This document shows, piece by piece, positions 10,993-51,411 of a DNA stretch of 57,190 nt; positions within the stretch are counted from its first letter, which is position 1; every line of letters begins with the position of its first letter. The translations under genes were made by a program, and so were the position numbers. The DNA lies in assembly GCA_037384945.1 (NCBI GenBank), contig JARRNM010000038.1, forward strand, positions 1 through 57,190, written 5' to 3'. The notes under the pieces were generated by a model. It did not search any database. It was not told where the DNA came from and worked only from the letters and a program-made list of their open reading frames with translations. Source of the DNA: Deltaproteobacteria bacterium. GTDB taxonomy: Bacteria > Desulfobacterota > Syntrophobacteria > BM002.

Positions 10993-11311
10993 TGTCTATC
11001 TCTCTTTTTGCGAGGCCGATCTTTGCAATTGTTAAGTTTTACTGGAGTAACGGAGAAATGATTATTCAAGTTGGAATTCCGCTTTTGGCTTTTTCCAATA
11101 CTCCAGTACTCCAACACTCCGAGACTCCAAGACCGGGCTTTCCCAGGCAGTTTTTTCGAATTAAGACTGCCTTTGGTAACTAGTTCAGCCCTGCTCTTGT
11201 CCGAAGAGTTCAGGATCATTGATGGCAGCTATTTCCAGTCGCCTCCGTAAGACGTCGCAAGAAAAGAAGCGTTTGCCCAACTCATAAGTATGCTGCTCTA
11301 TCCTGACTTCC

Positions 11312-15051
<3,740 letters not shown>

Positions 15052-15132
15052 CCGTTGTTCCTTTTCTTTTGTGCTGCAAGCTCGTTCAGGTTGATTGGTA
15101 AAGGTTTCACCTTAGCCACGGGCAGAAATCTC

Positions 15133-16566
15133 CTACTTCCTTCTCAGGTCGATGATTTCCATGCGATTGTTTGCTTGCGGATGTCTTGGTGAGGGTCCGG
15201 CTGCCAAAATCACTAAGTCTCCCTCCAGTTCATGCTTTTTCAGCCAATCTCGTGCGAAACTGTTCCAGTCCTCTATCTCGTCGTCCGGCAAATAAACCGG
15301 CTGGACGCCGTAAGAGAACTGCAGTTGTTGACAGGTGGCCTCGTTTGAACTTACGGCCGCGATCCATACAGGAAGCCTGAAACGCGTGATGCTTCTCACA
15401 GACGCCCCACTTTTGCTGGGTACTATCAAGGCGGCGGGGGACATGGTCTCCACGCTCGTCTCAACACTGAGGGCAATGAGATCCTTTAAATCAAGACTGC
15501 AGTCCAGGCCGCAGGCTCGCAACTCGCTTCGCACATGATGCCCCGGACGACGAGGCTCCACGGCAGAAGCAATCTTGGCCAGCATCTTCACTGCCTCCAC
15601 AGGATACTTGCCCGTTGCTGACTCACCGGAGAGCATAACGCAGTCCGTTCCATCCAAAATAGCGTTGGCCACATCGGTGGACTCTGCCCTGGTAGGACGG
15701 GGGTAGTCGGTCATCGATTCCAACATCTGGGTGGCGGTGATGACCGGCTTTCCCCTCATATTAGCCAGGTACATGAGGTCCTTTTGGGCAAGGGCAATTC
15801 TCTCGATGGGTATTTCCACCCCCAGATCCCCGCGGGCGATCATGATTCCGTCAGCCGCCTCAATGATCTCCTCCAGGTTATCTTGCGCTCGTGCTCGCTC
15901 TATCTTGCCGATGATAAACGGATGGTAGCCCTGCTCTGCGGCGGCGTCGCGCACTTCCATGATATCACTCTTTTTTTCCACAAAGGATTGACTGACTGCA
16001 TCCACTCCCTGTTCCAGCGCAAACTTCAAACACTCACGGTCGTGTCTAGTGAAGGCGCTGATGCCGAGGTCTATTCCGGGCAGGTTTAGACCTTTGCGGG
16101 ACCGTAGCTCACCCCCCGCCACCACCCGACACTCTATATCCTTGCCCCTTACTGCGACCACCTCGATCTGGATATAACCGTCATTGAGATACAGGGTGTC
16201 ACCGGGCCTTACCGCTTTTGGCAAACCTGGAAATGTCACCGAAGCTCGTCGGCTGTCACCGATGATCACTTCCGTGGTCAAAATGAATGAAGCGCCCACT
16301 TTGAGCTCTATTGGCTCCTCAGCCAGTTCGCCAATTCGTATTTTGGGACCGGCAAGGTCGGCTAGTATGGCAACTCGCCTCCCGGTTGCTCTGGCAGCAG
16401 ACCGAAGGTTTTCGATTGCCTTTTTATGAGTGTCGAAGTCACCATGGGAGAAATTCAGCCGGGCCACATTCATGCCCACCAGTATCATCTCCTCCATAAC
16501 CTCAGGTGATTCTGACGCCGGCCCAATGGTACAGACAATCTTGGTCTTGTTTGGCGGAAGTTTCAT
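15133..16566 (-). CDS. pyk: Pyruvate kinase
   Basis: TKIVCTIGP, RLNFSHG, MIARGDLGVE, ATQMLESM, RAESTDVANA. Confidence 0.98.
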   Translation of the reverse strand: MKLPPNKTKIVCTIGPASESPEVMEEMILVGMNVARLNFSHGDFDTHKKAIENLRSAARATGRRVAILADLAGPKIRIGELAEEPIELKVGASFILTTEVIIGDSRRASVTFPGLPKAVRPGDTLYLNDGYIQIEVVAVRGKDIECRVVAGGELRSRKGLNLPGIDLGISAFTRHDRECLKFALEQGVDAVSQSFVEKKSDIMEVRDAAAEQGYHPFIIGKIERARAQDNLEEIIEAADGIMIARGDLGVEIPIERIALAQKDLMYLANMRGKPVITATQMLESMTDYPRPTRAESTDVANAILDGTDCVMLSGESATGKYPVEAVKMLAKIASAVEPRRPGHHVRSELRACGLDCSLDLKDLIALSVETSVETMSPAALIVPSKSGASVRSITRFRLPVWIAAVSSNEATCQQLQFSYGVQPVYLPDDEIEDWNSFARDWLKKHELEGDLVILAAGPSPRHPQANNRMEIIDLRRK

Positions 16567-18228: not shown

Positions 18229-19911
18229 CTAGGTACCCAATACTCTCTGGAGAATGGCTTTGGTTATCATATAGGTCGGACGTATTCCTTCGAGCCCCAT
18301 AGGGCCGGCTGCCAGAGTCTGCCCGCTCTTTAAAGGGTTATCCGAGGCATAGTAGGCGTACCTGACTTTGACATTCTCTGGAATATGGCCTCGGATGATG
18401 GCAGCATTTATTGCCCGCTGGTAATGACCGCCTTCCATCTCCAAGCCGATCGCTTTCCAGGTCGTGGTCTGAAACTTCTCCAGAATGTCGCTGTTCTGCA
18501 AGGAGGTGCCGAGAACGGTTATGATCGGACCCACATAAATATCTATGTCCCGGTCAAAATCCTCCCTGCCAAGATCGTTGTCCACAATATAGTTGTGAGC
18601 CTGTCCCTCGAGGACGTGAGCTGTTGGCAGCATTATGTCGCCCTTTTTTCCAGGCAATATGCCTGCCTTGCCCATGATGGAGATGGATCTGACCTGGAGA
18701 GTTTTGCTTGAGCCGTTCTGGTCCAAAGGCTCGAGGAGTTCATCCATCAGTTCAAATGCCTGGAAGCCGAAAGCATAATCCATGACCACAAGCACCGTCC
18801 TCTGTTTCACTACTTCATCAGATTTGAACTTGATTGCTGGATGGAGACCCACAGTCTTGAGCTTTGATGTGTCTATTATTTGCCAGTTTGTCTGCGCCCC
18901 ACTTTCATCCACCATCTCATGAAAGCCGTGTTTGCTGGCAAAGGATTTAATCTGTTCTTCCCGGTCACTAATGTGCTGGATAAAAGTGTAGAGATCTTTA
19001 TTTGGCTCTTTTCCTTTCTTGTCTTTAACCGCTCCGTATCCGTAGATAAGATTGACCACACTGTGAAGATTTGCACTGATTATATGGATTGGACGATCCT
19101 GCAGCCCGAGAGCGGCCAATTTGTTCTTTATGGAAGCCGCCCATTTTTTTCCGTAGAGCTGATGCACAATTTGGTCGATGAGAGAAGGCCTGAAATAAAC
19201 AACCAGCCGATCGTTTTCCCGGATTTCCTTTTCTATGAGATTGCGGAGACTGTAGATTATTTGGAAAAGGCCGTTATTGCTCTTAAGTTCATCCTTCACC
19301 TTGCCTAAATAATCGTAGGTATCTCTAGTTTCATGATAGGTTCTGCCCAAAAGGATGCTCAGGTTCCAGATCGCCTGCTCTAAGTCTTCCTTTTCAAGCT
19401 CTTCTTCCCGATGAACGTCTTTTTCGAACCGTAACCATTCCCTGATCGGCTTACCATCCTCGTCCCTGGTTTTGCTGTGTATGTGTTTCGCTTCTATGTA
19501 CAGAAAGGTCAGATGGGTCAAAATGTCATAGATTTCACTCATTCCCGTGCTGATTACAAAACCCATCTCATTGTCGCTGACGCGAAAGGAGATTCTCCTT
19601 CTGCTTGGTGGACGAAGTTTTTCAAATGAAGTTCCCTCCAGATCGCCTTTTACGGTCATGACAAAACGGTTGCACTGCTCAATTCCCCGTGGAAGCCTGT
19701 CCATGATGTATTCCAGACCCTTCAACTCAATTCTCTTGGGGTCATTCATGCTCCCGTAAATTTCAGGGCTGAGAGTTCTTAAGGAAGCCTCCAGGGCCTG
19801 GCCGGATTGGCCCGCCATGCTGTAATGCCCTCTTAGCAAGAGGGCATGGGCAATTATTTGAAACGCTCTGATTGCAACTCTTCCCTGATGAGCTCTGTCC
19901 ATATCATCCAT
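18229..19911 (-). CDS. Conserved unknown protein (DUF6909-like) with C-terminal nucleoside phosphorylase-type fold
   Basis: 560 aa soluble ORF co-oriented in the operon. GKAGIL..GDIMLP and GLEMEG motifs are typical of the PNP/UDP/AMP-nucleosidase fold. Family name is from recall and unverified. Confidence 0.65.
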   Translation of the reverse strand: MDDMDRAHQGRVAIRAFQIIAHALLLRGHYSMAGQSGQALEASLRTLSPEIYGSMNDPKRIELKGLEYIMDRLPRGIEQCNRFVMTVKGDLEGTSFEKLRPPSRRRISFRVSDNEMGFVISTGMSEIYDILTHLTFLYIEAKHIHSKTRDEDGKPIREWLRFEKDVHREEELEKEDLEQAIWNLSILLGRTYHETRDTYDYLGKVKDELKSNNGLFQIIYSLRNLIEKEIRENDRLVVYFRPSLIDQIVHQLYGKKWAASIKNKLAALGLQDRPIHIISANLHSVVNLIYGYGAVKDKKGKEPNKDLYTFIQHISDREEQIKSFASKHGFHEMVDESGAQTNWQIIDTSKLKTVGLHPAIKFKSDEVVKQRTVLVVMDYAFGFQAFELMDELLEPLDQNGSSKTLQVRSISIMGKAGILPGKKGDIMLPTAHVLEGQAHNYIVDNDLGREDFDRDIDIYVGPIITVLGTSLQNSDILEKFQTTTWKAIGLEMEGGHYQRAINAAIIRGHIPENVKVRYAYYASDNPLKSGQTLAAGPMGLEGIRPTYMITKAILQRVLGT

Positions 19912-20054: not shown

Positions 20055-21344
20055 TTAAATCATCTCCCTCGGCTGTCCCGTGCAGGAGAGCACGCCGGTC
20101 CACAGTTTGTCCTTTGGATCGATTTGTTTACGCTCCGAAACCGCCGCAGAAATTGGTACGTAGGTGAACTCATCCCTCCAGTAAGCTACAACCATGTTGG
20201 TTCTCCCGGCCATAGCTGCGTGGACCGCGTTGTGAGCCAGTATAAGACAGAACGCCGAATCCGGCGGACTCGCCGGCATACTCCGAATAGTGTAACTGGG
20301 ATCAATATACTTAAGTTCCATATCAATCCCCGCTCTACTGAAATAATCCTTGATTTGCTCTTTAAGAAAGACACCAATATCGCCCAATCGAACGTTACCT
20401 GAAGCATCCCGTTCGCCCGTTGTCCCCATCAGATCCTGGCCAGCTCCTTCCGCAACCACCACCACGGCATGGTGTCTATTTTCCAGTCTCTCCTTCAGCG
20501 CTCCGAGGAAACCAGGTAAAGTGAAGCTCACCTCGGGCACCAGACAAAAATTGACGTCGCTGTTTGCCAGAGTAGCGTGAGCGGCGATAAATCCGGCATG
20601 GCGTCCCATCAGTTTCACCAGGCCGATACCGTTTCTCGCTCCTTCCGCTTCTGCATGGGCAGCATAGATTGCCGTGGTCGCTTCTGAGACAGCGGTCACA
20701 AAACCAAAAGACCTTTGTACAAAAGAAATGTCGTTGTCGATGGTCTTGGGAATGCCAATTACGCCGATTTTCAAGTTACGTTGTCTAATCTCCTCCGAAA
20801 TAGCCTGAGCTCCTCGCAGGGTTCCGTCTCCGCCGATAGCAAAGAGAATCCCCACGTTCATCCTCTCTAGAGTATCCACCATCTCAGAGACATCTTGAGG
20901 GCCACGGGATGAACCCAATATAGTTCCTCCCTGCTGGTGAATGTCTTCCACAACTTCCGGAGTCAGTTCCAGGGATGCGTGACCGTACCTATAAGTAAGT
21001 CCTTCAAATCCATAGCGAAAACCAAATACCGTCCGAACCCCGTAATGATAGAGAAGACTCAAGACAATGGCCCGAATGACGTCATTCAACCCAGGACAGA
21101 TACCACCACAGGTCACGATGCCGCACTTGAGCTTAGAAGGATCGAAGTAAATTCTTTCCCTCGGCCCGGCCATCTCAAAACATGGTGGCAGCTCATCCTT
21201 GTCGAGAAAGTCCGTAATTACGCTGCAATCTGCATGATAAAGTACATGCTTGCCATCGCTGACAAACTGCACACCCGACATGGGAGATGGTATACGGCAC
21301 TGTCCCAATCTCGAAATGGTTAGGTCCATATCATTGATGTCCAT
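20055..21344 (-). CDS. pfkA: 6-phosphofructokinase, PPi-PFK-related clade X type, predicted ATP-dependent
   Basis: TCGGICPGLN, GGTILGSSRG, IGGDGT, PKTIDND, MGRHAGFIA, YIDPSYTIRS. Confidence 0.93.
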   Translation of the reverse strand: MDINDMDLTISRLGQCRIPSPMSGVQFVSDGKHVLYHADCSVITDFLDKDELPPCFEMAGPRERIYFDPSKLKCGIVTCGGICPGLNDVIRAIVLSLLYHYGVRTVFGFRYGFEGLTYRYGHASLELTPEVVEDIHQQGGTILGSSRGPQDVSEMVDTLERMNVGILFAIGGDGTLRGAQAISEEIRQRNLKIGVIGIPKTIDNDISFVQRSFGFVTAVSEATTAIYAAHAEAEGARNGIGLVKLMGRHAGFIAAHATLANSDVNFCLVPEVSFTLPGFLGALKERLENRHHAVVVVAEGAGQDLMGTTGERDASGNVRLGDIGVFLKEQIKDYFSRAGIDMELKYIDPSYTIRSMPASPPDSAFCLILAHNAVHAAMAGRTNMVVAYWRDEFTYVPISAAVSERKQIDPKDKLWTGVLSCTGQPREMI

Positions 21345-21631: not shown

Positions 21632-23281
21632 TTAAAGGCTACCTGCGACAAGCGCCGCGTCAATGATCGCCTGTGCCTCTGCCTGAATCCTCCGCAAATG
21701 ATCATGTCCTTTAAAGCTCTCAGCATAGAGTTTGTAAATATCCTCGGTACCAGATGGACGGGCAGCAAACCAACCATTTTCAGTTACAACTTTAAGCCCA
21801 CCAATGGGAGCGTTGTTTCCGGGTGCCTTGGTAAGCTTGGCAGTGATGGTTTCACCGGCGAGTTCTTCTGCCGTAACCATAGTCGGAGATAGTTTCTTGA
21901 GAACCTCTTTTTGCGCAACTGTCGCTGGTGCGTCAATACGTTCATACAGCGGGCTGCCCAGTTCGTTTTCGAGATCTTTGTAGATCTCCGCCGGATCTTT
22001 CCCTTTAGTTGCCGTGATCTCGCAAGCCAGGAGGTCCATGATGATTCCGTCTTTGTCAGTTGTCCAGACCGTGCCGTCTTTTCTCAAGAATGAGGCTCCG
22101 GCGCTTTCCTCCCCGCCGAATCCGTAGGTGCCGTCCAGCAGTCCGTCCACAAACCATTTGAAGCCTACCGGCACTTCGGAGAGCTTCCGTCCCAGTCTCG
22201 AACTCACCCGATCTATCATGGAACTGGAAACCAGGGTCTTGCCCACAGCTGCGTCTGTTTTCCACTCAGGCCGATTTTGAAACAGGTACCATACCGCCAC
22301 CGCGAGATAGTGGTTGGGATTCATCAGGCCACCACTTCTGGTGACGATTCCGTGGCGATCACAATCTGCGTCATTGCCAAAGGCGATGTCGAAGTTATCT
22401 TTCAGGTCTATCAACCTTGCCATGGCATACTTTGAGGAGCAGTCCATCCGGATCTTGCCGTCCTTATCCACGGTCATGAAGGCAAAGGTTGGATCGACAC
22501 TACGATTCACCACCTCAATGGAAAGGTTGTACTTCTCGGCAATAGGATCCCAAAAGTTCACCGCTGACCCGCCCAGGGGGTCCACACCTATCCTGATACC
22601 CTCTTTAGCGATAATCTCCATATCAATGATGTTTTTAAGATCTTCAACGTAGGGAGTGATGAAATCATACTCCCGTGTAGTGTCAGCCTTTAGCGCTTTT
22701 TCAAAAGGCAGCCGTTTCACTTCCTTGAGTCCGGCGGCAAGTATCTCGTTGGCCCGCTCCTCGATAACCCTGGTGGTTTGAGTATCCGCAGGTCCTCCCT
22801 CAGGAGGGTTGTACTTGAATCCGCCGTCCGAGGGCGGGTTGTGGGAAGGGGTGATAACAACGCCATCGGCGAATCCCTTTTCCTTGCCGCGGTTGTAGGT
22901 CAGGATGGCATGGGAAATTACCGGGGTAGGCGTATAGCCAAAATCCTTCTGGATAATCACTCTCACACCGTTTGCCCCAAAGACTTCGAGCCCGCTGGCC
23001 AACGCCGCTTCGGAAAGTGCGTGGGTGTCCATTCCCATGAAAAGTGGTCCGGTGATGCCTTTTGCTTTCCGATGTTCACAGATGGCCTGACTGATTGCCA
23101 GCACGTGGTCTTCGTTGAAGCCGTTTCTCAGAGACGAGCCCCGGTGACCCGAGGTCCCAAAGGAGACTCGCTGTTCGGGCTCAGAGACGTCAACCTTGTG
23201 AGTGTAGTAAGCTGAAACAAGCCTGGGAATATTTTCAAGCAGATAACTGGGCGGGGGCTTACCAGCAAGTTCATGTACCAC
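21632..23281 (-). CDS. pgm: Phosphoglucomutase (alpha-D-glucose-1,6-bisphosphate dependent)
   Basis: FGTSGHRG, phosphoserine loop [31 protein letters not shown] start at 23281 follows GGAGG. Confidence 0.96.
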
Positions 23282-23704
23282 TATTCTATCCTCCAATGTT
23301 CAATTAACCTCTCACGGAGCCCACGGAGTCCTCAGTCAATTTGTTGTTTTGCAGCTCTGCCTCCCCAACCTCTCGTCGGGTTTACCCTGAGCGCCTCGAC
23401 CTGAGGACTTCGAGCGAGCCTCCGTTCGACCCGAGCCTTTCGGCAGTGAGCTCAAGGCCGAACTGCTCACGGCCGAGGGCAGTCGAACTTCTCGCCGACA
23501 GGTCTTGCCGAAGGGCCCGACATCACCTCCCGTGGCGTGAAGCGGTTAGCGCAGAGCGTTAAATAAAGGCTCTCAAACCGTTAAAATAGTAAAGATAGTA
23601 AAAATAGTAAGCGCTCAGAAGGTTGTAAGAGTCGTACAAATCTCAGAAGCCGAGGAAGCCATCAAGCTAGCTCACTGCGACAGATCTTCCTAATAACAGA
23701 TAAC

Positions 23705-23976: not shown

Positions 23977-25581
23977 CTAAGACGGTCCGGCTCCACTGAT
24001 ATCTTCGGAGACGTCTTCAGCAAACTGCTTGAAGTTCTCCGCGAACATGGAGGCCAGCTTTTTCGCCTGTTGGTCGTAAGCCGCCTTGTCCTTCCAGGTG
24101 TTCCTGGGTTGCAGTACCTCGGACGGCACATCGGGGCAGGTCTCTGGCACCTCGATTCCAAAGAAAGGATCTTTGGTCCTGGGGATTTCTTCCAGAGTGC
24201 CATTTAACACCGCGCTAACCATGGCGCGGGTGTAAGGTAGTTTGATTCGTTTGCCGGTACCGTATGGACCGCCGCTCCAACCGGTATTGATGAGCCAGAC
24301 TGAGGCATGGTGTTTTGCTATTTTCTCACCCAAAAGATCCGCATACACTACTGGATTTAGAGCCATGAAAGGAGCTCCAAAGCAGGCGCTGAAAGTTGCC
24401 TGTGGCTCCTTGATACCCCTTTCAGTCCCGGCTACTTTAGCGGTATAACCGGAAAGAAAGTGATACATTGCCTGTTCCGGCGTCAATTTCGCAACAGGGG
24501 GCAATACCCCGAAGGCATCCGCCGTGAGAAACAATATTTGTTTAGGGTGACCACCCACCCCATCCCTCGTAGCATTGGGGATGTGAGATATGGGGTATGA
24601 TGCCCTGGTATTCTCGGTGAAGGCATCGCTGTCGAGATCGAGACGCCTGCTCGCTGAATCTATGGCCACATTCTCCAGAATTGTGCCAAATTGACGAGTG
24701 GTTTCATAAATCTCAGGCTCAGCCTCAGGAGATAGCCTGATCACCTTGGCGTAACAGCCTCCCTCGAAGTTAAACACGCCATTTTCACTCCATCCATGCT
24801 CATCGTCACCTATAAGCGTTCGATCCGGATCAGCCGAGAGGGTGGTCTTGCCCGTACCCGAAAGGCCGAAAAACAGGGCAAGATCATCTCGGCTCTTGCC
24901 GTAATTGGCTGAACAGTGCATGGGCAATACGTTCTTTTCCGGCAAGATATAGGTCATCACTGTCAGCATGGTCTTTTTTATCTCACCAGCATAATGGCTG
25001 CCTGCCACGATCGCCTCCATTCTGCCAAAATTGAGCAGGACTACGACCTCGGAATTGGTGCCATCCTCCTCGGGGTTGGCGTTGAAACCCGCAGCATCGA
25101 GAATAGTGAAATCCGGCTGGTGCTGGGCCAGCTTGAGTGGATCTAGTTCCCGGACGAACATGTTTCGGGCAAAGAGATTGTGCCAGGCCTTCTCGGTAAT
25201 CACTCTAATCGGAAGCCTATACTCGGGGTCTGCACCCACATAACAGTCCTGGACGTAGAGATCCTTACCCTCGAGATAGGCCAGAATGCGGGCCCGTAGC
25301 GTTTCATAGCGCTCGGGGCTGAAAGGCCGATTGACCTCACCCCAGTAGATCTTGTCCTGGCTGGATGGCTCTCGAACGAGGTACTTGTCGTTGGGGGAAC
25401 GGCCGGTGTACTGACCGGTACGAACCACGAGCGGTCCGAGATGGGACATTAGTCCTTCATACCGTTGAAGGGCGTGTTCATAGAGAGCGGGACTCGATAA
25501 GTTCCACCATATGGTATTGGCATTGGTTATCCCGAAGTCCTCTAAACCATGTAGACTCCTGACTTGACCTTGATCTTGCAT
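23977..25581 (-). CDS. pckA: Phosphoenolpyruvate carboxykinase (ATP)
   Basis: [22 protein letters not shown]-loop [24 protein letters not shown]. Confidence 0.98.
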
Positions 25582-25665: not shown

Positions 25666-28047
25666 TTAAGAATCTCCTTTCGCCACGGCCTCGCAGACCA
25701 CCGAAGGAACATCCGGAGAAAGCCTGACCTCTTCGTCTCTGTGTCGAATCACCAGACCGTCCCCTTGGAGCAAGGTGTAGGTGGTGCAATCGGACTTCAT
25801 GTCAACTTCTATTCTCTGCCCCCGGACTGTCAGGGGAAAGCGAATTCTGCCCTGCCCTTCGAATTGCACTGGGTTGAAGGACAGTTGGCCGTCATAATCG
25901 CGCATTCCCGCAAAACCATGCACCAGTACCATCCAGGTGGCGCCCATGGCTGCCATGTGGACCCCGTCACTCACATTACCTCCAACATCGGCAAGATCCA
26001 TGAGCACAGCATAACGGGCATAATCGTTTGCCTTTTCCAGATAACCCAACTCGAAGGCCACGATGCTCTGGATGCCCACAGATAGGGATGAATCCCCGGT
26101 AGTCAATGGATCGTAGTAGTCAAAGTTGCGCTTCTTCTCCTCTGTTGAGAACTCATCTCCGAGAAGAAACATGGCCAAGACCAGGTCTGCCTGCTTGATT
26201 ACCTTGTGCCGGTAGATAACCAGGGGATGGTAGTGAAGCAGTAAGGGATATTTGTCTTGAGGTGTGTTGTCGAAGTCCCACCTCTCCTTGTTAGGGAAGC
26301 TGTCGTCTTGAGGGTGAATGGAGGATTTGGCATCAAAGGGAAGGTACATGTTGTCTGCAGCCTTCTGCCATTCCTCGGTTTCGGATATGTCCAATCCGGT
26401 TTTGTCCACCAGTTCGGCAAAGCGGTCGGGATGATCCCGATGAATGTCTTTCATGGTTGCGGCGGCGTACCACAAGTTCTCTCTTGCCATCAGGTTGGTG
26501 AAGGTATTGTTATTCACCACGGTATTGTATTCGTCCGGTCCGGTAACTCCGTGAATGCAAAATTTCCCGCCCTTCCTCTCCGAGTAGAAACCAAGGTCGG
26601 CCCACAGCCTCGCTGTTTCCACCAGCATTTCCGCGCCCTCATCATAAAGAAACTCTAGATCACCCGTGGCATCCACGTACTTCCTCATGGCGTAGATAAT
26701 ATCTGCATTGATGTGATACTGGGCCGTTCCGGCGGCGTAGTAAGCAGAGGCCTCCTCACCGTTGATGGTCCGCCAGGGAAAAAGAGCCCCTCTCTGATTC
26801 AGCTCTTTGGCCCGCTCTCTGGCCTGCCCCAGCATGCTGTAACGGAACCTGAGCAGGTTCCTGGCAATTCGGGGCGAAGTGTAAATGAGAAAGGGAAGAA
26901 GGTAGATCTCGATATCCCAGAAATAGTGACCTTCATAGGCCTGTCCTGTGAGCCCCTTGGCCGGGACTCCCACTCCCTCCGCCCGGCCGGCTGCCTGGAA
27001 GACATGGAAGAGATTGAAGCGGACCGCCTGCTGCCACTCCTCTGTGGTCCTGCGTCTTCTGGAGGGATCCACGGAAACCTGAACGTCGCTCCTCTGCCAG
27101 AAACCGTCAAGACACCGCCGCTGACCTGCAAGCAGTGCGGAAAATCCTTGCTCCTTGGCACGGTCGAGGGTCCGTTCTGCTCTTCCGCACAACTCTTGGG
27201 GTGAAGCACTCCTTGACGAGTGGTAGGTAATGTATTTGGTCAGCTGAATGGGTAGCCCTGGTTTCGCTTCGATGGAAAAAACAACCTTGCCGGAATCTTC
27301 TGAAATTTCCCGTTTAAAAGAATACGGACACTCTGTTTCGACCACATGCTCCATACCACATGCTAGTGTCATCTTGCTGCGGTTCGTCTGGTAGCCAAAG
27401 ATTGCCCGCTGATCTTCTTCATAGACAACCATGGGCAACAGGACCCGGTCTCCGAAGCTCCGTGCTCGTCGAGGATCCCCTTCATCCACAACCTCACCTT
27501 GCTGATTGGTCAGCTTCGAGGAGAGCACCACCGGCGCCTTACCATTGTGAACCGTTACCTCGTAAGCAATGGCAGCAAGGTGACGGTGTTCCAGGGAGAC
27601 CAGCCTTCTGGACTTGATGGAAACTCTTTTTCCTGACGGCGTTTCCCAGAGTATCTCTCTGTCGAGGGTACCGTTTTTCATATCCAGGACACGCTCAAAG
27701 CTGAGCAGGTCGGCGGTAGGAAGATAAAAGGGCTCGTCGTCCACGTAAAGCCTAATAATTTTGGTATCCGGCACGTTGACTATGGTTTGCCCGGTTTTGG
27801 CAAAACCATAGGCCTCCTCCCCATAGACGATGGGCCAGGACTCATAGAATCCGTTGACAAAGGTGCCGTTCTCGTAGGTGGGCATCCCTTCATCGAAATT
27901 ACCCCTCATGCCTATATAGCCGTTGCTCAGGGAAAACATGGTTTCCGACTGAGCCAGAAAACGAGGGTAGAAATCCCTTTCGACAAATTTCCATTCATGG
28001 GGAGGATAAACATATTTGGGAGGTTTTAACCTCTCTCGGTGAAGCAT
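25666..28047 (-). CDS. GH65 disaccharide phosphorylase (trehalose/maltose/kojibiose family)
   Basis: NGYIGMRG, YEGHYFWD, GPDEY, IKQAD, HDGVH-like DGVHMA. Adjacent to beta-PGM. Confidence 0.93.
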   Translation of the reverse strand: MLHRERLKPPKYVYPPHEWKFVERDFYPRFLAQSETMFSLSNGYIGMRGNFDEGMPTYENGTFVNGFYESWPIVYGEEAYGFAKTGQTIVNVPDTKIIRLYVDDEPFYLPTADLLSFERVLDMKNGTLDREILWETPSGKRVSIKSRRLVSLEHRHLAAIAYEVTVHNGKAPVVLSSKLTNQQGEVVDEGDPRRARSFGDRVLLPMVVYEEDQRAIFGYQTNRSKMTLACGMEHVVETECPYSFKREISEDSGKVVFSIEAKPGLPIQLTKYITYHSSRSASPQELCGRAERTLDRAKEQGFSALLAGQRRCLDGFWQRSDVQVSVDPSRRRRTTEEWQQAVRFNLFHVFQAAGRAEGVGVPAKGLTGQAYEGHYFWDIEIYLLPFLIYTSPRIARNLLRFRYSMLGQARERAKELNQRGALFPWRTINGEEASAYYAAGTAQYHINADIIYAMRKYVDATGDLEFLYDEGAEMLVETARLWADLGFYSERKGGKFCIHGVTGPDEYNTVVNNNTFTNLMARENLWYAAATMKDIHRDHPDRFAELVDKTGLDISETEEWQKAADNMYLPFDAKSSIHPQDDSFPNKERWDFDNTPQDKYPLLLHYHPLVIYRHKVIKQADLVLAMFLLGDEFSTEEKKRNFDYYDPLTTGDSSLSVGIQSIVAFELGYLEKANDYARYAVLMDLADVGGNVSDGVHMAAMGATWMVLVHGFAGMRDYDGQLSFNPVQFEGQGRIRFPLTVRGQRIEVDMKSDCTTYTLLQGDGLVIRHRDEEVRLSPDVPSVVCEAVAKGDS

Positions 28048-28108
28048 AAACTCCTCTCTTAAGGTATCAATTCAAGTCGATCTGCAATCTTCAACCTAAA
28101 GTCTGCAA

Positions 28109-28846
28109 TCACAGAAGTTCCCCGGGATCGGGTACGACAATGTGGGCACCGTTCTCTCTCAACTCCTCCGCCTGTCCCTTACGGTCAACCCCAACAACCA
28201 GACCGAATCCGCCGTCTCGGCCGGCTTGGACGCCGGAGATAGCATCCTCCACCACCACGGCACGTTCCGGTTCCACCCCCAGCTGTTGAGCAGCTTTGAG
28301 AAACTTGTCAGGAGCGGGTTTGCCGGGAAGCTCCAGCTGGTTGGCCACCTCACCGTCCACCCTTACATCAAACAGATGGTCAAGGGACGCTGCCTCGAGG
28401 ACTGCTTTGCAGTTCTTACTCGCAGAAACTACGGCAGTTTTTATCCCCTGGCTTCGGAGTTGATTGACCAGTTCCACAGCCCCTTCGTAGACCTCGATAC
28501 CCTCTTCACGGAGGACTTTTTTAAACATTCGGTCTTTTACTTTCCCGAGACCCTGAACGGTCTCGTAGTTCGGAGGCTCAGCTGAGTCACCTTCAGGCAA
28601 GTAAATTCCACGAGACTGGAGAAAGCTGCGCACCCCGTCTTCTCGGAGCTTTCCGTCAATATGTTTCGGGTAATCTGTCTGGATGTCAAAGGGCTCAAAG
28701 GGTTCTTCAGGGCGACGCAACAGAAATTCATCAAACATCTTCTTCCAGCAAGCAGCGTGGACCTTGGCGGTGGCGGTAATCACGCCATCTAGATCAAAGA
28801 GCACCGCGTCAAACCTATCTTTGCTTATGGCTTTACTGTAAGTCAT
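28109..28846 (-). CDS. pgmB: Beta-phosphoglucomutase family HAD hydrolase
   Basis: FDLDGVIT, VVSASKN, GKPAPD, VVEDAISGVQAG. Start placed at MTYSK behind GAGGGA. Confidence 0.88.
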   Translation of the reverse strand: MTYSKAISKDRFDAVLFDLDGVITATAKVHAACWKKMFDEFLLRRPEEPFEPFDIQTDYPKHIDGKLREDGVRSFLQSRGIYLPEGDSAEPPNYETVQGLGKVKDRMFKKVLREEGIEVYEGAVELVNQLRSQGIKTAVVSASKNCKAVLEAASLDHLFDVRVDGEVANQLELPGKPAPDKFLKAAQQLGVEPERAVVVEDAISGVQAGRDGGFGLVVGVDRKGQAEELRENGAHIVVPDPGELL

Positions 28847-28867
28847 AATCGTCCCTCGACTGCCAAT

Positions 28868-29031
28868 TAATGTCCATCCGGAAACCATGTTTCTGGATGT
28901 CATTCTGAGGAGTCCCGCCGGGGCGGGACGACGAAGAATCTCGAGATTCTTCGCGGAGTTTACCCTGAGCCCGCCGACAGGTCTTGCCGAAGGGCTCAGA
29001 ATGACAATAGGGAATCTCCGGATAGAGACTA
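28868..29031. mobile_element. MITE/REP-like element copy 2
   Basis: Ends TAATGTCCATCCGGAAAC and CTCCGGATAGAGACTA; same core. Confidence 0.65.
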
Positions 29032-29032
29032 A

Positions 29033-29957
29033 TTAGTCATCAAATACTGTCGTGTCTGCTCCCCGCAAGTCTTTCACCGCCTGCATAACCCTCTTAGCCA
29101 TGGATTCTTCCGCCAGTTTCATATAGACACGAGGGTCATATGTCTTTTTATTTCCCACTTCTCCGTCAACCTTGAGAACACCATCGTAGTTCTTCAGCAT
29201 ATGATCTGCTATTGGACGAGTAAAGGCGTATTGGGTGTCTGTGTCGATATTCATCTTCACAACTCCGTAGTCGACTGCCTCTCTGATCTCCTCGAGTGAC
29301 GACCCCGAACCTCCGTGAAAGACTAGGTAAAAGAGCTTATCCTTCCCGTAGGTTTTCTCCAGAGCCTGCTGGCCTTCTCTGAGAATCGAGGGCTTGAGCT
29401 TGACGTGACCCGGCTTGTAGACCCCGTGGACGTTACCGAAGGTGGCAGCCACCAAATAACGGGCACCTTTGACTTCATTCATCCGGCGAGCCGCCTCGAG
29501 CATATCGTCAGGGGTGGTATAGAGTTTTTCAGCAGCCCCTTCTCCACTTACCCCGTCCTCTTCACCGCCTACTATGGCTATTGAACAGATTCGGCAAACC
29601 TGCCGCTCTGCGTCTTTCCGTCTCTTCTATGAGTGGGATGACGAAGCTCTCGAGCTTGTCAGCTTGACAGTGGTCCGTGTGCAAGGCAACATAGATGTCG
29701 TAGCGCTCTGCAAGGCGGTGGACATGTTCGGCAATGGACATGGCCCCCAAAGCCATGTCCTTGACCGAAGTACCGGAGGCGAAAGCCCCGCCTCCGGTGG
29801 AAACCTGAATAATGCCGTCGCAACGGCTCTCAGCCAACCCCTTCAGAACGGCATTGGCCGTTGTCAAAGAGGTCACGTTGATAGCCGGATAGGCAAACTT
29901 CTTGTCCCGCGCTCTATCCAACATTTTGCAGTAGGTTTCATAATCAGCAACTGGCAT
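29033..29957 (-). pseudogene. fbaA: Class II fructose-bisphosphate aldolase (FbaA type) with an internal deletion and frameshift at ~29572
   Basis: MPVADY..HTDHC..LFNSH in one frame, VGGEEDG..FGNVHGVYKPG..HGGSG..KMNIDTD in another. The MWDGS..EIEIG segment (~36 aa) is missing. Confidence 0.9.
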
Positions 29958-30062
29958 AGTAACTCCTCTATAATTTCGGATCCGGGCTTTCGCCTGCCGC
30001 CACCTCGCCCGCCATACGAGCAAGGCGAGGCGGGCGGGGAGGCGAAATCTCAAATCTAAATT

Positions 30063-31373
<1,311 letters not shown>

Positions 31374-31792: not shown

Positions 31793-33013
31793 ATGGATCT
31801 GGATCTGCTTTCTTCGTTGGCTATTGAGAACGATACTAAAGTTGTTTTGGTAATCATGGACGGCTTGGGAGGTCTGGCGGGACCTGACGGGAAGACCTCT
31901 CTGGAAGCAGCGCACACCCCGAATCTTGATGGGCTCGCACTATCCTCCATTTGCGGCTTCCATGACCCTCTGGGGCCGGGACTCACCCCCGGGTCCGGGC
32001 CTGCGCACATTGGACTGTTCGGCTACGATCCCTTTCGTTACTTGATCGGGCGAGGCGTTCTGGACACAGCCGGGACCCCATTCGTATTCGAACCGGGTGA
32101 CATGGCCAGCAGGTTAAATTTCGCTACCCTGGCAGCCGACGGCACCATTGCCGACCGGCGGGCAGGACGAATACCCGACGAGAAAGGCAAACGGGTGACC
32201 GAGTTACTTGCCCAAAACATAAAAGAAATAGACGGAGTCCAGGTCTTGATGCAACATGTAAAAGAATACCGGGCTGCGGCAATTTTCCGGGGTAGGAAAC
32301 TGGACGGCCGCCTATGCGACAGCGATCCCCAACAGGTTGGCCACAAGCCGCTACAAGTTGCACCCACCGAAGAAAACCCCACTGCCGAGGCCAAGGAAGC
32401 GGCAGCTCTCGCCAACAAATTTATCGCCCGAGCGAAAGAAATACTGGCAGATGAACAGAAGGCCAACTTCGTCATGATGCGTGGTTTTGATATTTATGAG
32501 CCCCTGCCGAACTTCTGTGAACTCTACAAGTGGCGAGCCTGCGCGGTAGCCGCCTACCCCATGTACAAGGGCGTATCAAAGCTGGCCGGCATGCGGGTGA
32601 TCGAGGAAGGACAGTCCACCATTGAGGAAGAAATCGAGCTGGTGGAGCGTGAATTTCCCAAGACCGACTTCCTCTTTCTCCACGTGAAGAAAGCAGATTC
32701 GATGGGGGAAGACGGCAACTTTGAAGGAAAGGTGGGGGTAATAGAACATTTCGATCGTATTCTGCCCCGCCTCACGGCTCTGAAACCTGATGTTCTTTGC
32801 ATCACCGGAGACCACTCCACCCCTTGCAGGCTCAAAAGCCACTCCTGGCATCCGGTTCCCATATGTATTTCAGCAGAAAGTGTGAGGACCGACGCTTGCC
32901 AAACTTTCGGGGAGACGTCTTTTCTCACGGGAGGACTGGGGCGCATTCACAGCACAGAGGTTATGCCCCTGCTTCTGGCCCATGCGGGAAGATTAATGAA
33001 ATATGGCGCGTAA
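31793..33013 (+). CDS. apgM: 2,3-bisphosphoglycerate-independent phosphoglycerate mutase, archaeal-type
   Basis: MDGLGG, GLTPGSGPAH, RRAGRI, HVKKADSMGEDG, ITGDHSTP, HSWHPVP. Confidence 0.93.
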   Translation: MDLDLLSSLAIENDTKVVLVIMDGLGGLAGPDGKTSLEAAHTPNLDGLALSSICGFHDPLGPGLTPGSGPAHIGLFGYDPFRYLIGRGVLDTAGTPFVFEPGDMASRLNFATLAADGTIADRRAGRIPDEKGKRVTELLAQNIKEIDGVQVLMQHVKEYRAAAIFRGRKLDGRLCDSDPQQVGHKPLQVAPTEENPTAEAKEAAALANKFIARAKEILADEQKANFVMMRGFDIYEPLPNFCELYKWRACAVAAYPMYKGVSKLAGMRVIEEGQSTIEEEIELVEREFPKTDFLFLHVKKADSMGEDGNFEGKVGVIEHFDRILPRLTALKPDVLCITGDHSTPCRLKSHSWHPVPICISAESVRTDACQTFGETSFLTGGLGRIHSTEVMPLLLAHAGRLMKYGA

Positions 33014-33024
33014 GTCCAGGAAAG

Positions 33025-33093
33025 AACTAGGCACTAAGCACCAGACACTAGGCACAACAAAGAAGTAGTCGGTAGTCAGTAGCCGGTAGTTAG
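33025..33093. repeat. Heptamer repeat block, near-copy of 43804-43866
   Basis: AACTAGGCACTAAGCAC..AAGAAG(T/C)AGTC..GTAG at both sites. Confidence 0.7.
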
Positions 33094-33270
33094 TTATAGT
33101 AATTTAGAAATCATCCTTCGGACTCGCACCCTGCGGGCGGGTTCCGGGTTTCGACTTTAAGGAATGTTTTGACTCTATGCCCCATGCCCTATGCTCTATG
33201 CCTTCCGAAATCTGCAATCCGAAGTATCCAAAGTGCTTAGTACTTAGTAGCGGAACGGATGCGACCAGAA

Positions 33271-35028
33271 TCATTTCAGTTTCGGTTCTTCTTTGCCCAG
33301 TTGGAGGATTCGTTTGGCGTACTCCTTTTTCAACTCACCGATGAATGGTTCGTCAACTGGTCCCTTCCAGTTGGTCACTTCGGTAAAACGTTTGGGAATC
33401 TTTACCGCTTCCGGATCAAAACCGGTGGTCAGTCGAAGTCGCCAGCGCAACTTTTGAATATGCCGGGCCACCTCCTGCATGTTGTCGGCCAGAGTTGTGT
33501 AGCCCAGAGAATTCAGGCAGTCTGCCAGTAACTCATCCTTGTAGACTTCACGGGCAAAAAGACAGGCAACCATGGAGGTCAAGAGTACCCTGCCCTGTTC
33601 ATCCTTCACCAGAAAATCCACCGCCTCCTTTACCTCCCTATCTGTCGTGTGTTTCTGATCGTATGAATAGCCGCCACTGTCCAGGTGGGAATGTCTGAAT
33701 CCCAAAGCCTGGGAGGCGAAAAAGACCTCCCCGGTGGCATAGCCGGCCATCTCCTGACCTAGAACACAGGCAAAATCTTCACCGCCATAGTGCTCTGCCG
33801 CCTTCATGGTTCCCTGCCCAAGCAATCTGTAGAAGTCGTTGGAGCCTTTTCCAAGATGAAGCACGGCCTCTCTGTATGGATCAGCCTCACCAAACCTCAG
33901 GGGCACCAAGGTATCATTTTCTGAAAGAATGGTCCTTTCCAGCGCCTCCGTGGCCCAGGCCAAGGCCACCCCTGCCGACATGACATCGAGCCCCATCTTT
34001 TCCACTGTATCCATGAGGCCAAGGACCTTGAAACCGTCGGTCATACCCAGCATGGAACCAGTGGCAAATATGGGTTCGTGATCGTAGGAGACCTGACGAT
34101 AAAGATATTGATTGGGCTCCATAAATTTTTCCCGCACGAATCCCACGTGAATACAGCCAACCGGACAGTTGGCACAGGCAGTGTGCCGCAGGAGGATATC
34201 CTGAGCAAATCTTTCACCGGTAATTCCTTCGATCTCCGGATCACTGGTCTTTTGAAGATTCCTGCAGGGTAAAGCCTCAAGCTCATTCAATACGGCCACG
34301 TTAACCGGGGTGCCGAGGTTATGATACTTATCCATCATGTCTGTGGTAGTAAGCTGCTGGTAAACTTCTTTGAAAAGATCGGGATATTCTTTCCCCTCCG
34401 GCAGGTCGAAAACGCCGTCCCCTTGCACAACGATGGCCTTGAGGTTTTTGACTCCCATGACCGCGCCCCCTCCGAGCCTACCGAAATGACGGTAGGTGTC
34501 CACATTGATGCAGGCCATGGCCGAGCCGATTTCCCCGGCAGGACCTATACGCATAATGCTCCGATGCCCTGAGCCCGTTGACATGCGGCGAAGAAGCTTT
34601 CCCGCCTGATCCACCTCCATGCCCCACATGTAGTGGACATCTCTGACTTCAAGTTGGCGCGAGCCGATAAGGAGGCAGGAGGGTTTAGCCGCCTTGCCAC
34701 TAATCACCAGTCCGTCCAGATCGGCAAAGCGAAGTGAAAGGGCAGAGCGGCCCCCAGCGTGGCTTTCCGCGTACTGGTCATGGTAAGGTGATTTGAAACC
34801 ACACACGGTCTTACTGATGAGGGGAAAATAACCGGTGAGAGGACCGATGGTGAAAATGAGGGGTTGGTCGGGATCGTCCCATGGTCTGTCACTATGGCCA
34901 TAATCATTGAATAGGAGAGCCGCCAAGCCGCTGCCTCCAACAAACTGATCCCGACCCTCGAGGGTGAGAATCTTACCCCTACCTTTATCGAGATCCACCT
35001 TGAGTATCCTGAAGTAGTCTCTGATCAC
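33271..35028 (-). CDS. W/Mo-pterin aldehyde:ferredoxin oxidoreductase family catalytic subunit (GOR-like)
   Basis: FKSP..ESHAGGRSA, NVDTYRHFGRLG.GAVMG.KNLKA, CxxCxxxC (CANCPVGC) plus distal C (VACLF), MGLDVMSAG. GTG start overlaps the upstream stop (GTGA). Confidence 0.88.
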   Translation of the reverse strand: MIRDYFRILKVDLDKGRGKILTLEGRDQFVGGSGLAALLFNDYGHSDRPWDDPDQPLIFTIGPLTGYFPLISKTVCGFKSPYHDQYAESHAGGRSALSLRFADLDGLVISGKAAKPSCLLIGSRQLEVRDVHYMWGMEVDQAGKLLRRMSTGSGHRSIMRIGPAGEIGSAMACINVDTYRHFGRLGGGAVMGVKNLKAIVVQGDGVFDLPEGKEYPDLFKEVYQQLTTTDMMDKYHNLGTPVNVAVLNELEALPCRNLQKTSDPEIEGITGERFAQDILLRHTACANCPVGCIHVGFVREKFMEPNQYLYRQVSYDHEPIFATGSMLGMTDGFKVLGLMDTVEKMGLDVMSAGVALAWATEALERTILSENDTLVPLRFGEADPYREAVLHLGKGSNDFYRLLGQGTMKAAEHYGGEDFACVLGQEMAGYATGEVFFASQALGFRHSHLDSGGYSYDQKHTTDREVKEAVDFLVKDEQGRVLLTSMVACLFAREVYKDELLADCLNSLGYTTLADNMQEVARHIQKLRWRLRLTTGFDPEAVKIPKRFTEVTNWKGPVDEPFIGELKKEYAKRILQLGKEEPKLK

Positions 35029-35477
35029 GACGACAACTCCTCGGCTTCCTTTTGGGCTGTCGGCTCAAGGGGAACCGCTATAATTTCCAAACAGTCGTGA
35101 GGACAGAACTCCACGCATCTGCCGCAGTGGATGCAGACAAAGGGTTCCCTCGTCTCGTCGAGATAGATGGCGTCCACTGGACAGGCCTCGGCGCAGTCGC
35201 CGCAGCGGATACAGAGTTTTTTCCTCACAAGCACCCCCCCACCCTTACGCTGCGAGTAAGCCCCGGTTGGGCAGGCCTCGGCGCAGGGGGCAGGGTCACA
35301 GGCAAGACAGGGGCTGGCCTCAAAGCCGGTGGACAAACCGCCGGAAGATCTTATGCGAATGCCTGCCGTATCCCATGAAAGCCGCTTGTGGACAAGGCGG
35401 GCACAAGCCAGCGAGCAGGAGTGACAGCCAATACATCTCTCCATTCGGGGAGTCGTAAGTATTTTGGCAGCTTTCAT
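35025..35477 (-). CDS. Polyferredoxin-type 4Fe-4S subunit of the oxidoreductase
   Basis: Four Cys clusters: CIGCHSCSLAC, CLACDPAPCAEAC, CIRCGDCAEAC, CIHCGRCVEFC. Confidence 0.92.
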   Translation of the reverse strand: MKAAKILTTPRMERCIGCHSCSLACARLVHKRLSWDTAGIRIRSSGGLSTGFEASPCLACDPAPCAEACPTGAYSQRKGGGVLVRKKLCIRCGDCAEACPVDAIYLDETREPFVCIHCGRCVEFCPHDCLEIIAVPLEPTAQKEAEELSS

Positions 35478-35566
35478 AGGTGGACCTCTAGGATGTCCTT
35501 AAATTAGTTAAGGTAAAATATTAAAAAATAACTTTTTATATTATAATATTATATACTTGAGAGTAA

Positions 35567-35739
35567 CTATCAATCCGGAAACTTAACATTGCCATTCTGA
35601 GCCCTTCGCTTCACTCAGAGCCTGCCCTGAGCCTGTCGAAGGGATGAACTCCGCGAAGGATCATGAGATTCTTCGTCGTCCCGCCAACGACGGAACTCCT
35701 TAGAATGACAACCTCAAAGGAGGTTTCGGATGAACACTA
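35567..35739. mobile_element. MITE/REP-like element copy 3 (core inverted)
   Basis: ATCCGGAAAC .. GTTTCGGATGAACACTA; core CATTCTGAGCCCTTCG..GAGATTCTTCGTCGTCCCGC..AGAATGACA. Confidence 0.65.
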
Positions 35740-50117: not shown

Positions 50118-50194
<77 letters not shown>

Positions 50195-50208: not shown

Positions 50209-50741
50209 TTAGCTGGCAACGGCTTTTTCGGACAAAGAGGATGTGACCATTTTGTGACCATCCTCTTTTTTATTGCCTGTAGTCAAGCCGTTTAACAGCT
50301 TGATCTCTTCCCTGGCAAACTCTTTTGATAGATGGGCATAACGCATGGTTATTTTAATATCTGCATGGCCCAGGATCTTCTGCAGTGCCCTGAGTGATCC
50401 CCACGCATGACATAGTGAGAGGCGAAAGTGTGTCTCAAATCGTGCGGCCTGAAATCGGTAATCCCTGCCCTTTTGACTGCTGCATTGAAGGCGGTCTTAA
50501 TATCGGAGATGTGACCATTTTGGTCACAAAAGATGTATTTGGTCCCTACCGGCTGACGTTTCCTGATGGATTTAAAACATTCTGCCAGGTCTCCATTTAT
50601 AGGAATTTGTCTTGCCTTGTCGGTTTTGGTTTTCTCGAGATAGATAAACTCCCCTCGGATCTGGTCCCGCCTCAAGGAAAGTATCTCACCCTTTCTCATG
50701 CCGGTGTTAACGGCAATGATGATAAAATCCCTAAGATAGAC
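50209..50741 (-). pseudogene. Tyrosine integrase, C-terminal catalytic half only, frameshifted at the CCCC run 50399-50402
   Basis: TGMRKGE, KTKT, HDLRHTFAS in one frame; LQKILGH..TMRYAH in the shifted frame; stop at 50209. The N-terminus is missing. Confidence 0.88.
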
Positions 50742-51009
50742 AGCCTGCGGTCCAGCAAACGGTGAACGCTGACGAAGACATCCTGCCGCGGCTGCCACCT
50801 CCTGCCGGTCCATAGACTTCACGCCAACTAGCCCGGCACTTGGACGATCGACACCCTCGTCGGCGCCTTCCGCGACTTGCGAGACGCGAGCTTTCCCGCT
50901 ACTTCCTTCGGCTGCATCAGCTGGTTCTGGCCCCGGAGGGCGATCAGCTCGCCTTCGCGCTCGCGATGCTGCACAGGCACATCCAGCGGCACGGTTCGCC
51001 ACTGCCGAC

Positions 51010-51411
51010 TCTATAGACGGGAAAAGAGATAAGATCTTTGATGCCCTGGAATGGCTGGCGGCCATGTGTTCTCACCTCTCTGGCAAGGGTGAACAGATGG
51101 TGAGGTATTACGGCTACTTCAGCGACGTTTCTCGAGACACACAGAAGAAGAAAAACGAAGACAACCTCATACCCTGCATCCTGAAGCCGGATGAGTCATC
51201 GAAAGCGTCGAGGAAGAATTGGGCCAGACTGATCCGGAAAATCTACGAGGTTGATCCGCTTGTCTGCCCAAAGTGCAACTACCAGATGCGGATCTTGAGC
51301 TTCATGGAAGACCAGGCGATGATCAGCAAGATCCTCAAGCATCTACGCCTATATCTGGTACGTTCAACACTCCCTGCCAGGGCTCCTACCCAGAGCCCCC
51401 CGGTTAGATGA
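51010..51411 (+). pseudogene. IS91-family (Y2 rolling-circle) transposase, C-terminal remnant
   Basis: DGK..KIFDALEWLAAMCSH..KGEQMVRYYG, RKNWARLIRKIYEVDPLVCPKC...MRI. Confidence 0.75.

Follow-up and report, generated by a model that had tools for sequence, protein, structure and literature searches.

A gene pair of the aldehyde oxidoreductase family beside glycolysis genes

Could a gene pair of the aldehyde:ferredoxin oxidoreductase (AOR) family, lying next to glycolysis genes in a deltaproteobacterial genome, provide a ferredoxin-linked route from glyceraldehyde 3-phosphate (GAP) to 3-phosphoglycerate (3-PG)? We addressed this question for positions 33271-35477 of contig JARRNM010000038.1 (assembly GCA_037384945.1, Deltaproteobacteria bacterium, class Syntrophobacteria), whose full 57,190 nucleotides, contig C38 in our numbering, are called the window; the host genome comprises 4.7 Mb in 325 contigs and is 83% complete. 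The original prediction, made from the letters of the window, had placed here a tungsten enzyme like the GAP-oxidising GOR of Caldicellulosiruptor bescii, at the missing step of a glycolysis cluster. We found that the pair caps the end of a ~26-kb island of genes leading from alpha-glucan to pyruvate, and we propose, with a probability of about two in three, that it encodes a ferredoxin-linked oxidoreductase converting GAP to 3-PG in this glycogen-to-pyruvate island, in parallel to GAPDH and PGK. Its substrate, metal, electron acceptor and physiological role are all what we infer from sequence and gene context. The open reading frames (ORFs) named by the original prediction are present exactly where it had placed them, and the two-gene unit has the following features:

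33271-35028, minus strand: WorL/GOR-L-like large subunit, 585 aa, with AFOR_N and AFOR_C domains and predicted pterin-cofactor and [4Fe-4S] sites
35025-35477, minus strand: WorS/GOR-S-like small subunit, 150 aa, Fer4 families, with four predicted [4Fe-4S] cysteine motifs
35025-35028, minus strand: GTGA overlap of the small-subunit TGA stop and the large-subunit GTG start, read from the sequence and translations
35480-35590, minus strand: AT-rich, promoter-like leader of the two-gene unit, with a TTGATA-N16-TAATAT match

The large subunit matched the Pfam families AFOR_N (190.2 bits, cut-off 29.8) and AFOR_C (172 bits, cut-off 27). The cysteine motifs of the small subunit read C15-x2-C-x2-C-x3-C and C57-x2-C-x4-C-x3-C, the other two beginning at C89 and C115; no twin-arginine (Tat, RR) motif is present, and with the first cluster motif beginning as early as residue 15 there is no room for a signal peptide. 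The GTGA overlap bears out the translational coupling that had been claimed for the two genes, and the same abutment of the small and then the large gene is found in C. bescii and in nearly all relatives. The pair has the features of Class II WOR enzymes, namely an adjacent four-motif small subunit, no Tat signal or transmembrane segment, and no WorN or WorABC genes, and it most likely encodes a cytoplasmic tungsten-type oxidoreductase of that class.

Upstream, the pair is set apart by 259 bp from a pqiC/Mla operon (Mla/Pqi lipid transport) that is unrelated to it. The leader within this spacer is ~75-80% AT, as judged by eye, in a genome of 52% GC, and it is conserved within the genus only (relatives L039 and L040). 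An imperfect inverted repeat, TTGATAGTTACTCTCAA, 5′ of the small-subunit gene was also considered and was dropped, as it showed no conservation in relatives. No Rfam family or riboswitch was found near the genes, the sole Rfam match in the window being a tRNA at 50118.

Relationship to characterised enzymes

The nearest characterised relative of both subunits is the GOR of C. bescii (Athe_0820/0821; formerly XOR), which is listed as WOR clade 20 of Class II (PMC13328260). Its large subunit, GOR-L (ACM59936.1, on CP001393), was retrieved through a Caloramator homologue and a cluster look-up. The large subunit of the window aligned with GOR-L at 42% identity and 63% similarity over 578 residues (482 bits), and the small subunit aligned with GOR-S at 43% identity (94 bits). 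Scores of the large subunit against solved structures were 162-172 bits for the AOR of Pyrococcus furiosus (PfAOR), 138 bits for FOR and 113 bits for WOR5, and the three AOR paralogues of the host genome itself scored 69-120 bits. It fell below the cut-offs of both the AOR equivalog NF007354 (100.8 bits, cut-off 868) and the archaeal GAPOR equivalog NF040818 (20.5 bits, cut-off 1300). Among 1.8 billion representatives, a tier of 585-600-aa proteins at 35-56% identity stands above the ~30% tier of ordinary AORs, and close homologues (75-94% identity, more than 100 clusters in public data) carry the labels of Deltaproteobacteria or Syntrophobacterales metagenome-assembled genomes (MAGs). An orthologue in the cultured Syntrophobacter fumaroxidans is 71% identical.

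The likeness to the C. bescii enzyme extends beyond overall identity. Both enzymes have two subunits encoded in the order small then large by abutting or overlapping genes, with sizes of 586 + 136 aa in C. bescii and 585 + 150 aa in the window, and both small subunits are of the four-cluster kind. The subunit sizes and the two motifs quoted in the original prediction were recovered, and the motifs are common to GOR-L; the two large subunits have in common ESHAGGR, NVDTYRHFGRLG and RHSHLD, together with all Fe-S and second-shell residues and the 44 signature positions described below. The two enzymes differ in that the window protein belongs to a separate clade with fixed changes beside the catalytic Glu and Tyr, and in that hosts of its clade are Syntrophobacteria, other Desulfobacterota and Nitrospirota, whereas those of C. 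bescii GOR are thermophilic Firmicutes. Archaeal GAPOR (P. furiosus; WOR clade 23, Class I) belongs to the same AOR/WOR superfamily and catalyses the reaction proposed here; however, it is monomeric, without the small subunit that the window pair has, and it lacks a conserved Tyr/His region (PMC12096430) that is present in the window protein. The P. furiosus enzymes WOR5/ASOR (PDB 6X6U/6X1O; Class II) and AOR (1AOR) have the WorL fold families, and WOR5 also has a WorS-type four-cluster subunit, which the small subunit of the window matched over its full length (6x6u_B). However, both enzymes reached only 113-172 bits, lie beyond a fully supported split in our tree, and act on different substrates.

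Phylogenetic position and conserved residues

A quick tree of 112 rows and a careful tree of 54 rows, the latter including PfAOR and the genome's own paralogue, were built; at least 80 superclade loci of use for tree building came from a degenerate DNA scan. A superclade uniting C. bescii GOR with the window protein was split from all other AORs with support of 100/100 in the careful tree and 100 by SH-aLRT in the quick tree. The window protein did not branch with AOR-type enzymes, a result that holds for a tree in which FOR (138 bits) was not included. Within the superclade, the C. bescii/Caloramator/Coprothermobacter/Clostridia clade was supported at 100/98 in the careful tree, and the GOR sequences of Caloramator fervidus (WP_103895832.1) and Coprothermobacter platensis (WP_018963763.1), labelled as such in a 2025 review supplement, clustered with C. 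bescii. The window protein fell outside this clade, in a clade of its own with 100/100 support, whose stem measures 0.52 substitutions per site. Sequences of the same clade share at least 51% identity in either case, and pairs drawn from the two different clades share 38-46%. The original assignment to the GOR clade was borne out for the superclade and was overstated for the C. bescii clade itself; the window protein belongs to a sister lineage of the characterised GOR. In the published scheme of 92 WOR clades it may fall in clade 20 or in a neighbour such as clade 19.

The clade of the window protein holds Syntrophobacteria, Syntrophales, Desulfocapsaceae and Thermodesulfovibrionales together with MAG proteins labelled Chloroflexota and Planctomycetota. 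The latter (on contigs L183 and L184) are 74-78% identical to the large subunit of the window and are nested among Syntrophobacteria, which suggests that they were transferred recently or were mis-binned. The careful tree did not settle the order in which the subclades of the superclade branch, archaeal and Nitrospirota groups among them.

Residues were mapped by alignment to PfAOR. The four cluster cysteines C285, C288, C292 and C489 (PfAOR C288/C291/C295/C494) are invariant in the window protein's clade, and the second-shell residues T240, E318, Y430 and H448 (PfAOR Thr243/Glu313/Tyr427/His448) are 100% conserved there; all four second-shell residues are kept by the GOR clade, while archaeal GAPOR keeps only two (PMC12096430). 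We identified 44 positions that are fixed alike throughout the superclade, in the window protein's clade, in that of C. bescii and in the remainder, and are different in other AORs. Ten of these are Arg, Lys or His (R94, R156, R160, H181, K234, H236, H294, H446, R480 and R493), and such a set of basic residues would suit an anionic substrate. In a comparison of R480 and R493 with the glutarate-binding arginines of P. furiosus FOR, the C-terminus of that enzyme gave no alignment, even with a profile.

A recurring link to glycolysis and glycogen genes

An orthologue was present in 46 of 122 genomes of the class, and the small- and large-subunit genes were adjacent in all 20 class loci examined, which came from different genera. 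A gene for pyk, fba, pfk, eno, pgm, pgi or glgX lay within 8 kb of the pair at 15 of these 20 loci; the chance expectation is ~4% of loci, by our estimate from about a dozen such genes, a 4.5-Mb genome and a 16-kb span. The small-subunit gene has glycogen phosphorylase as its immediate neighbour in four Syntrophobacteria genomes (L050:10277-13012), and in another (L049:15-5317) the order is pta, ackA, a 218-aa ORF, pyk, an Asp-Al_Ex permease, GOR-S and GOR-L. The pair is adjoined by pgm in a Thermodesulfovibrionales MAG and flanked by glgX and eno, one per side, in a Syntrophales MAG; on a contig labelled Chloroflexota a glycosyltransferase, an amylase and pyk lie near it, and on one labelled Planctomycetota pyk does. 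At least eight different arrangements were seen around the pair, indicating that the link to glycolysis and glycogen genes was made or kept many times. The conservation of the neighbourhood was thus confirmed as a recurring association that has been rearranged repeatedly.

The enzyme also co-occurs with the island-type PFK across the 122 class genomes (32 with both, 14 with the enzyme only, 21 with the PFK only and 55 with neither; odds ratio 6, p = 1e-5, uncorrected for phylogeny), 14 carriers of the enzyme being without this PFK. None of 77 loci of other subclades showed these sugar genes within flanks of up to 8 kb, in a search with bacterial queries that could miss archaeal enzymes.

The island in the window

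The following genes make up the island between the pair and its far end:

31793-33013, plus strand: apgM, cofactor-independent phosphoglycerate mutase (NF003160, 536 bits, cut-off 468)
30063-31370, minus strand: eno, enolase, divergent from apgM (TIGR01060, 630 bits)
29033-30053, minus strand: class II fba, disrupted, with ~107 nt (49 aa) gone and a frame change near 29534-29573
25666-28903, minus strand: GH65 glycoside phosphorylase and a beta-phosphoglucomutase-family HAD hydrolase
23977-25581, minus strand: pckA, ATP-dependent phosphoenolpyruvate carboxykinase
21632-23296, minus strand: pgm (TIGR01132, 923 bits)
20055-21344, minus strand: pfk (NF005301, 670 bits)
9307-16566, minus strand: GH13 alpha-amylase-family enzyme, pgi, glgX and pyk

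As had been noted before, the large-subunit gene on the minus strand converges with apgM on the plus strand. Beyond apgM all island genes are on the minus strand, a DUF6909 protein and a DASS transporter among them. The clustering of pgm, pgi, pfk, apgM, eno and pyk stood, all six scoring above their NCBIfam cut-offs; fba, which the original prediction had counted with them, is broken. Intact orthologues match this gene in two separate frames, with their residues 1-128 in one and 178-342 in the other, and a search of the genome (83% complete) gave no second class II aldolase. The interruption could be real decay or an assembly error. The missing segment includes HMFDGS...EIEVGV. In a genome of the same genus (G018, locus L039) fba is also frame-broken, at a different, N-terminal site.

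The DUF6909 protein (560 aa; 18229-19911, minus strand) lies between pfk and the DASS transporter, and in a relative (L043, 64% identity) it is found again next to fba and pyk. Elsewhere in the window, a tRNA gene (50118-50191, plus strand) is followed by a truncated phage-integrase-family ORF (50349-51065, minus strand), and the two may be the remnant of an integrated element.

GAPDH, PGK and cofactor supply

The window is indeed without gap and pgk, as the original prediction had said, and tpi was likewise not found in it. The claim of a missing step did not survive a search of the rest of the genome and of the class: a PGK gene lies on contig C84, a divergent GAPDH-like gene of 387 aa lies on contig C5 (C5:7998-9158; L007:4999-6159, minus strand; TIGR01534 285 bits, below the cut-off of 367), and canonical GAPDH occurs class-wide. 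It was found in 67 of 67 high-quality class genomes, among them genomes that carry the GOR-like enzyme and further ones from the host genus. In the host genome, at 83% completeness, neither canonical GAPDH nor TPI was found. Since canonical GAPDH is universal in the class, its absence here is best explained by incompleteness; like the fba deletion, the lack of gap and tpi could be an artefact of assembly or binning. With PGK and a GAPDH-like gene in the genome and GAPDH throughout the class, the enzyme would form a parallel branch and not a replacement. Similarly, C. bescii keeps GAPDH beside GOR (PMC13328260).

Two further observations concern GAPDH-like genes. The one on contig C5 adjoins an ORF of 1401 aa that resembles pyruvate,phosphate dikinase in its C-terminal part, and many class genomes carry a long (435-455 aa) divergent GAPDH paralogue in tandem with canonical gap.

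A search of the genome for tupABC recovered TupA-like, TupB-like and TupC/WtpC-like genes in a row; the TupA-like gene scored 255 bits (best family tung_bind_TupA, below its cut-off of 400) and the TupB-like gene 212 bits. Pterin-cofactor genes are present as well, namely two copies of MoeA together with MoaA, MoaC and MoeB.

Proposed function

We propose that the large subunit (WorL) would carry a pterin cofactor and one [4Fe-4S] cluster, and the small subunit (WorS) four [4Fe-4S] clusters. GAP from the island aldolase would be oxidised to 3-PG at the pterin-metal site of the large subunit; the 3-PG could be taken up by the adjacent ApgM and then by enolase, while the two electrons would pass from the large-subunit cluster through the four clusters of the small subunit to ferredoxin. 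This route would bypass 1,3-bisphosphoglycerate and forgo the ATP of PGK, so that one ATP per triose would be traded for low-potential reductant. The island as a whole would carry glycogen or alpha-glucan to pyruvate, and in relatives on to acetate. With GAPDH and PGK staying in the lineage, both routes would operate side by side, like those of C. bescii, their balance probably being set by hydrogen/formate pressure and by the NADH and ferredoxin state. The partner genes pfk, pyk, glgX, glgP and pta-ackA are catabolic, which speaks for the oxidative direction while stored glucan is degraded. What remains of the ferredoxin-reducing modified Embden-Meyerhof pathway first suggested for this locus is thus the kinship with GOR and the link to glycolysis; the replacement of GAPDH and PGK is not retained.

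Evidence against the proposal and alternative explanations

Several observations weigh against this proposal. The window protein's clade has a long stem and is separate from the C. bescii clade, to which it shows only 38-46% identity, and it contains none of the characterised members of the superclade. Eighteen positions are fixed differently in the two clades, among them P319 for L directly after the catalytic E318, A431 for H directly after Y430, E434 for Y, Q425 for N and S439 for G. At the sites of A431, Q425 and S439 the rest of the superclade sides with the C. bescii residue (79-87%), at that of P319 a slim majority does so, and at that of E434 neither residue is found. At most of these sites the window protein's clade thus looks derived, and since fixed differences lie beside catalytic residues its specificity could differ, which is our main reason for caution on the substrate. 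The GOR genes of C. bescii lie with moaD, moeB, tupABC, two copies of moeA, moaA and moaC, not with glycolysis genes, so the inference from neighbourhood is not directly transferable between the two enzymes. In addition, the deepest member of the window protein's clade (P0121) has no sugar genes nearby, and the island itself has the broken fba in a genome, 83% complete, where TPI and canonical GAPDH were not found.

These residues and the long stem of a clade supported at 100/100 also fit an enzyme that diverged from GOR towards another aldehyde derived from sugars, which might be non-phosphorylated glyceraldehyde, erythrose-4-phosphate or a further aldehyde of a phospho- or acid-sugar, the more so as substitutions beside the catalytic Glu and Tyr are fixed at sites where the remaining superclade sequences side with C. 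bescii. Moreover, characterised members are on record for only two of the 40 Class II WOR clades, and the substrates of these two are not the same (PMC13328260). However, the neighbours fba, pfk, eno, apgM and pyk belong to the Embden-Meyerhof pathway and glycogen metabolism, in which GAP is the sole aldehyde intermediate; KDG/KDPG aldolase, glycerate kinase and pentose-pathway genes are absent among the annotated ORFs of the window and the recurring locus families, and all the superclade-specific basic residues are kept. We regard a different aldehyde as doubtful on this balance. It is rather unlikely, too, that the clade is a functionally distinct WOR clade retuned by P319, A431, E434, Q425 and S439, possibly for a reversible interconversion of 3-PG and GAP at very low potential or for a different phospho-sugar aldehyde; in either case it would serve the endogenous glycogen metabolism of syntrophs and sulfate reducers as a dedicated ferredoxin valve.

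The direction of the reaction and the breadth of the substrate range raise two more alternatives. A ferredoxin-driven 3-PG reductase would serve gluconeogenesis or glycogen synthesis on propionate or acetate without the ATP of PGK, and pckA, eno, apgM and fba work both ways, the hosts are generally known as non-saccharolytic syntrophs and sulfate reducers with low-potential ferredoxin, and AOR-family enzymes can reduce acids when given strong reductants (PMC9295118). Yet the strongly exergonic GAPOR reaction, estimated at about -26 kJ/mol, is viewed as unidirectional (PMC12525153), the genes that recur beside the pair (pfk, pyk, glgX, glycogen phosphorylase and pta-ackA) act in catabolism, and no fructose-1,6-bisphosphatase was seen in the island, which together make this direction very unlikely. 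Public records give these proteins no other name than 'aldehyde ferredoxin oxidoreductase', and their catalytic second shell is that of aldehyde-oxidising AORs, so a generic, broad-spectrum enzyme for detoxification or acid reduction, with an incidental position among sugar genes, has to be weighed. We consider it highly improbable, since the protein is split 100/100 from PfAOR-type enzymes, reaches 101 bits where NF007354 demands 868, has three further AOR paralogues in the same genome, and keeps a sugar-gene neighbourhood that recurs in many arrangements. Taken together, these comparisons leave the oxidation of GAP to 3-PG as the reading that we prefer.

Significance for syntrophic bacteria

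GOR was described in 2015 and 2019 (PMC13328260). Scott's 2019 study reportedly found that C. bescii keeps GAPDH alongside GOR and that homologues occur in 44 mostly anaerobic bacterial genera. Our literature search found no paper placing such an enzyme in Syntrophobacteria or tying it to a glycogen island, and a 2025 survey of glycolysis mentions the bacterial enzyme type in passing only (PMC12525153). As judged from the genomes compared here, the pair belongs to an uncharacterised sister clade of a known enzyme type, and the genomic case for a glycolytic role is unusually strong.

If the proposal is correct, a ferredoxin-dependent, ATP-sacrificing branch of glycolysis wired to glycogen breakdown would be found in many of the mesophilic Desulfobacterota that live as syntrophs or sulfate reducers and in their relatives, bacteria that are usually not counted as sugar users. 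Stored glucan could then be turned into reduced ferredoxin, and from there into hydrogen or formate, when the oxidation of NADH is thermodynamically blocked, and the trade of ATP for reductant would be useful to a syntroph that disposes of its electrons as hydrogen or formate. Such a branch would bear on models of syntrophy energetics and starvation survival, and a role would be assigned to a WOR clade that is large and highly conserved and that includes an enzyme of the cultured, assayable host S. fumaroxidans.

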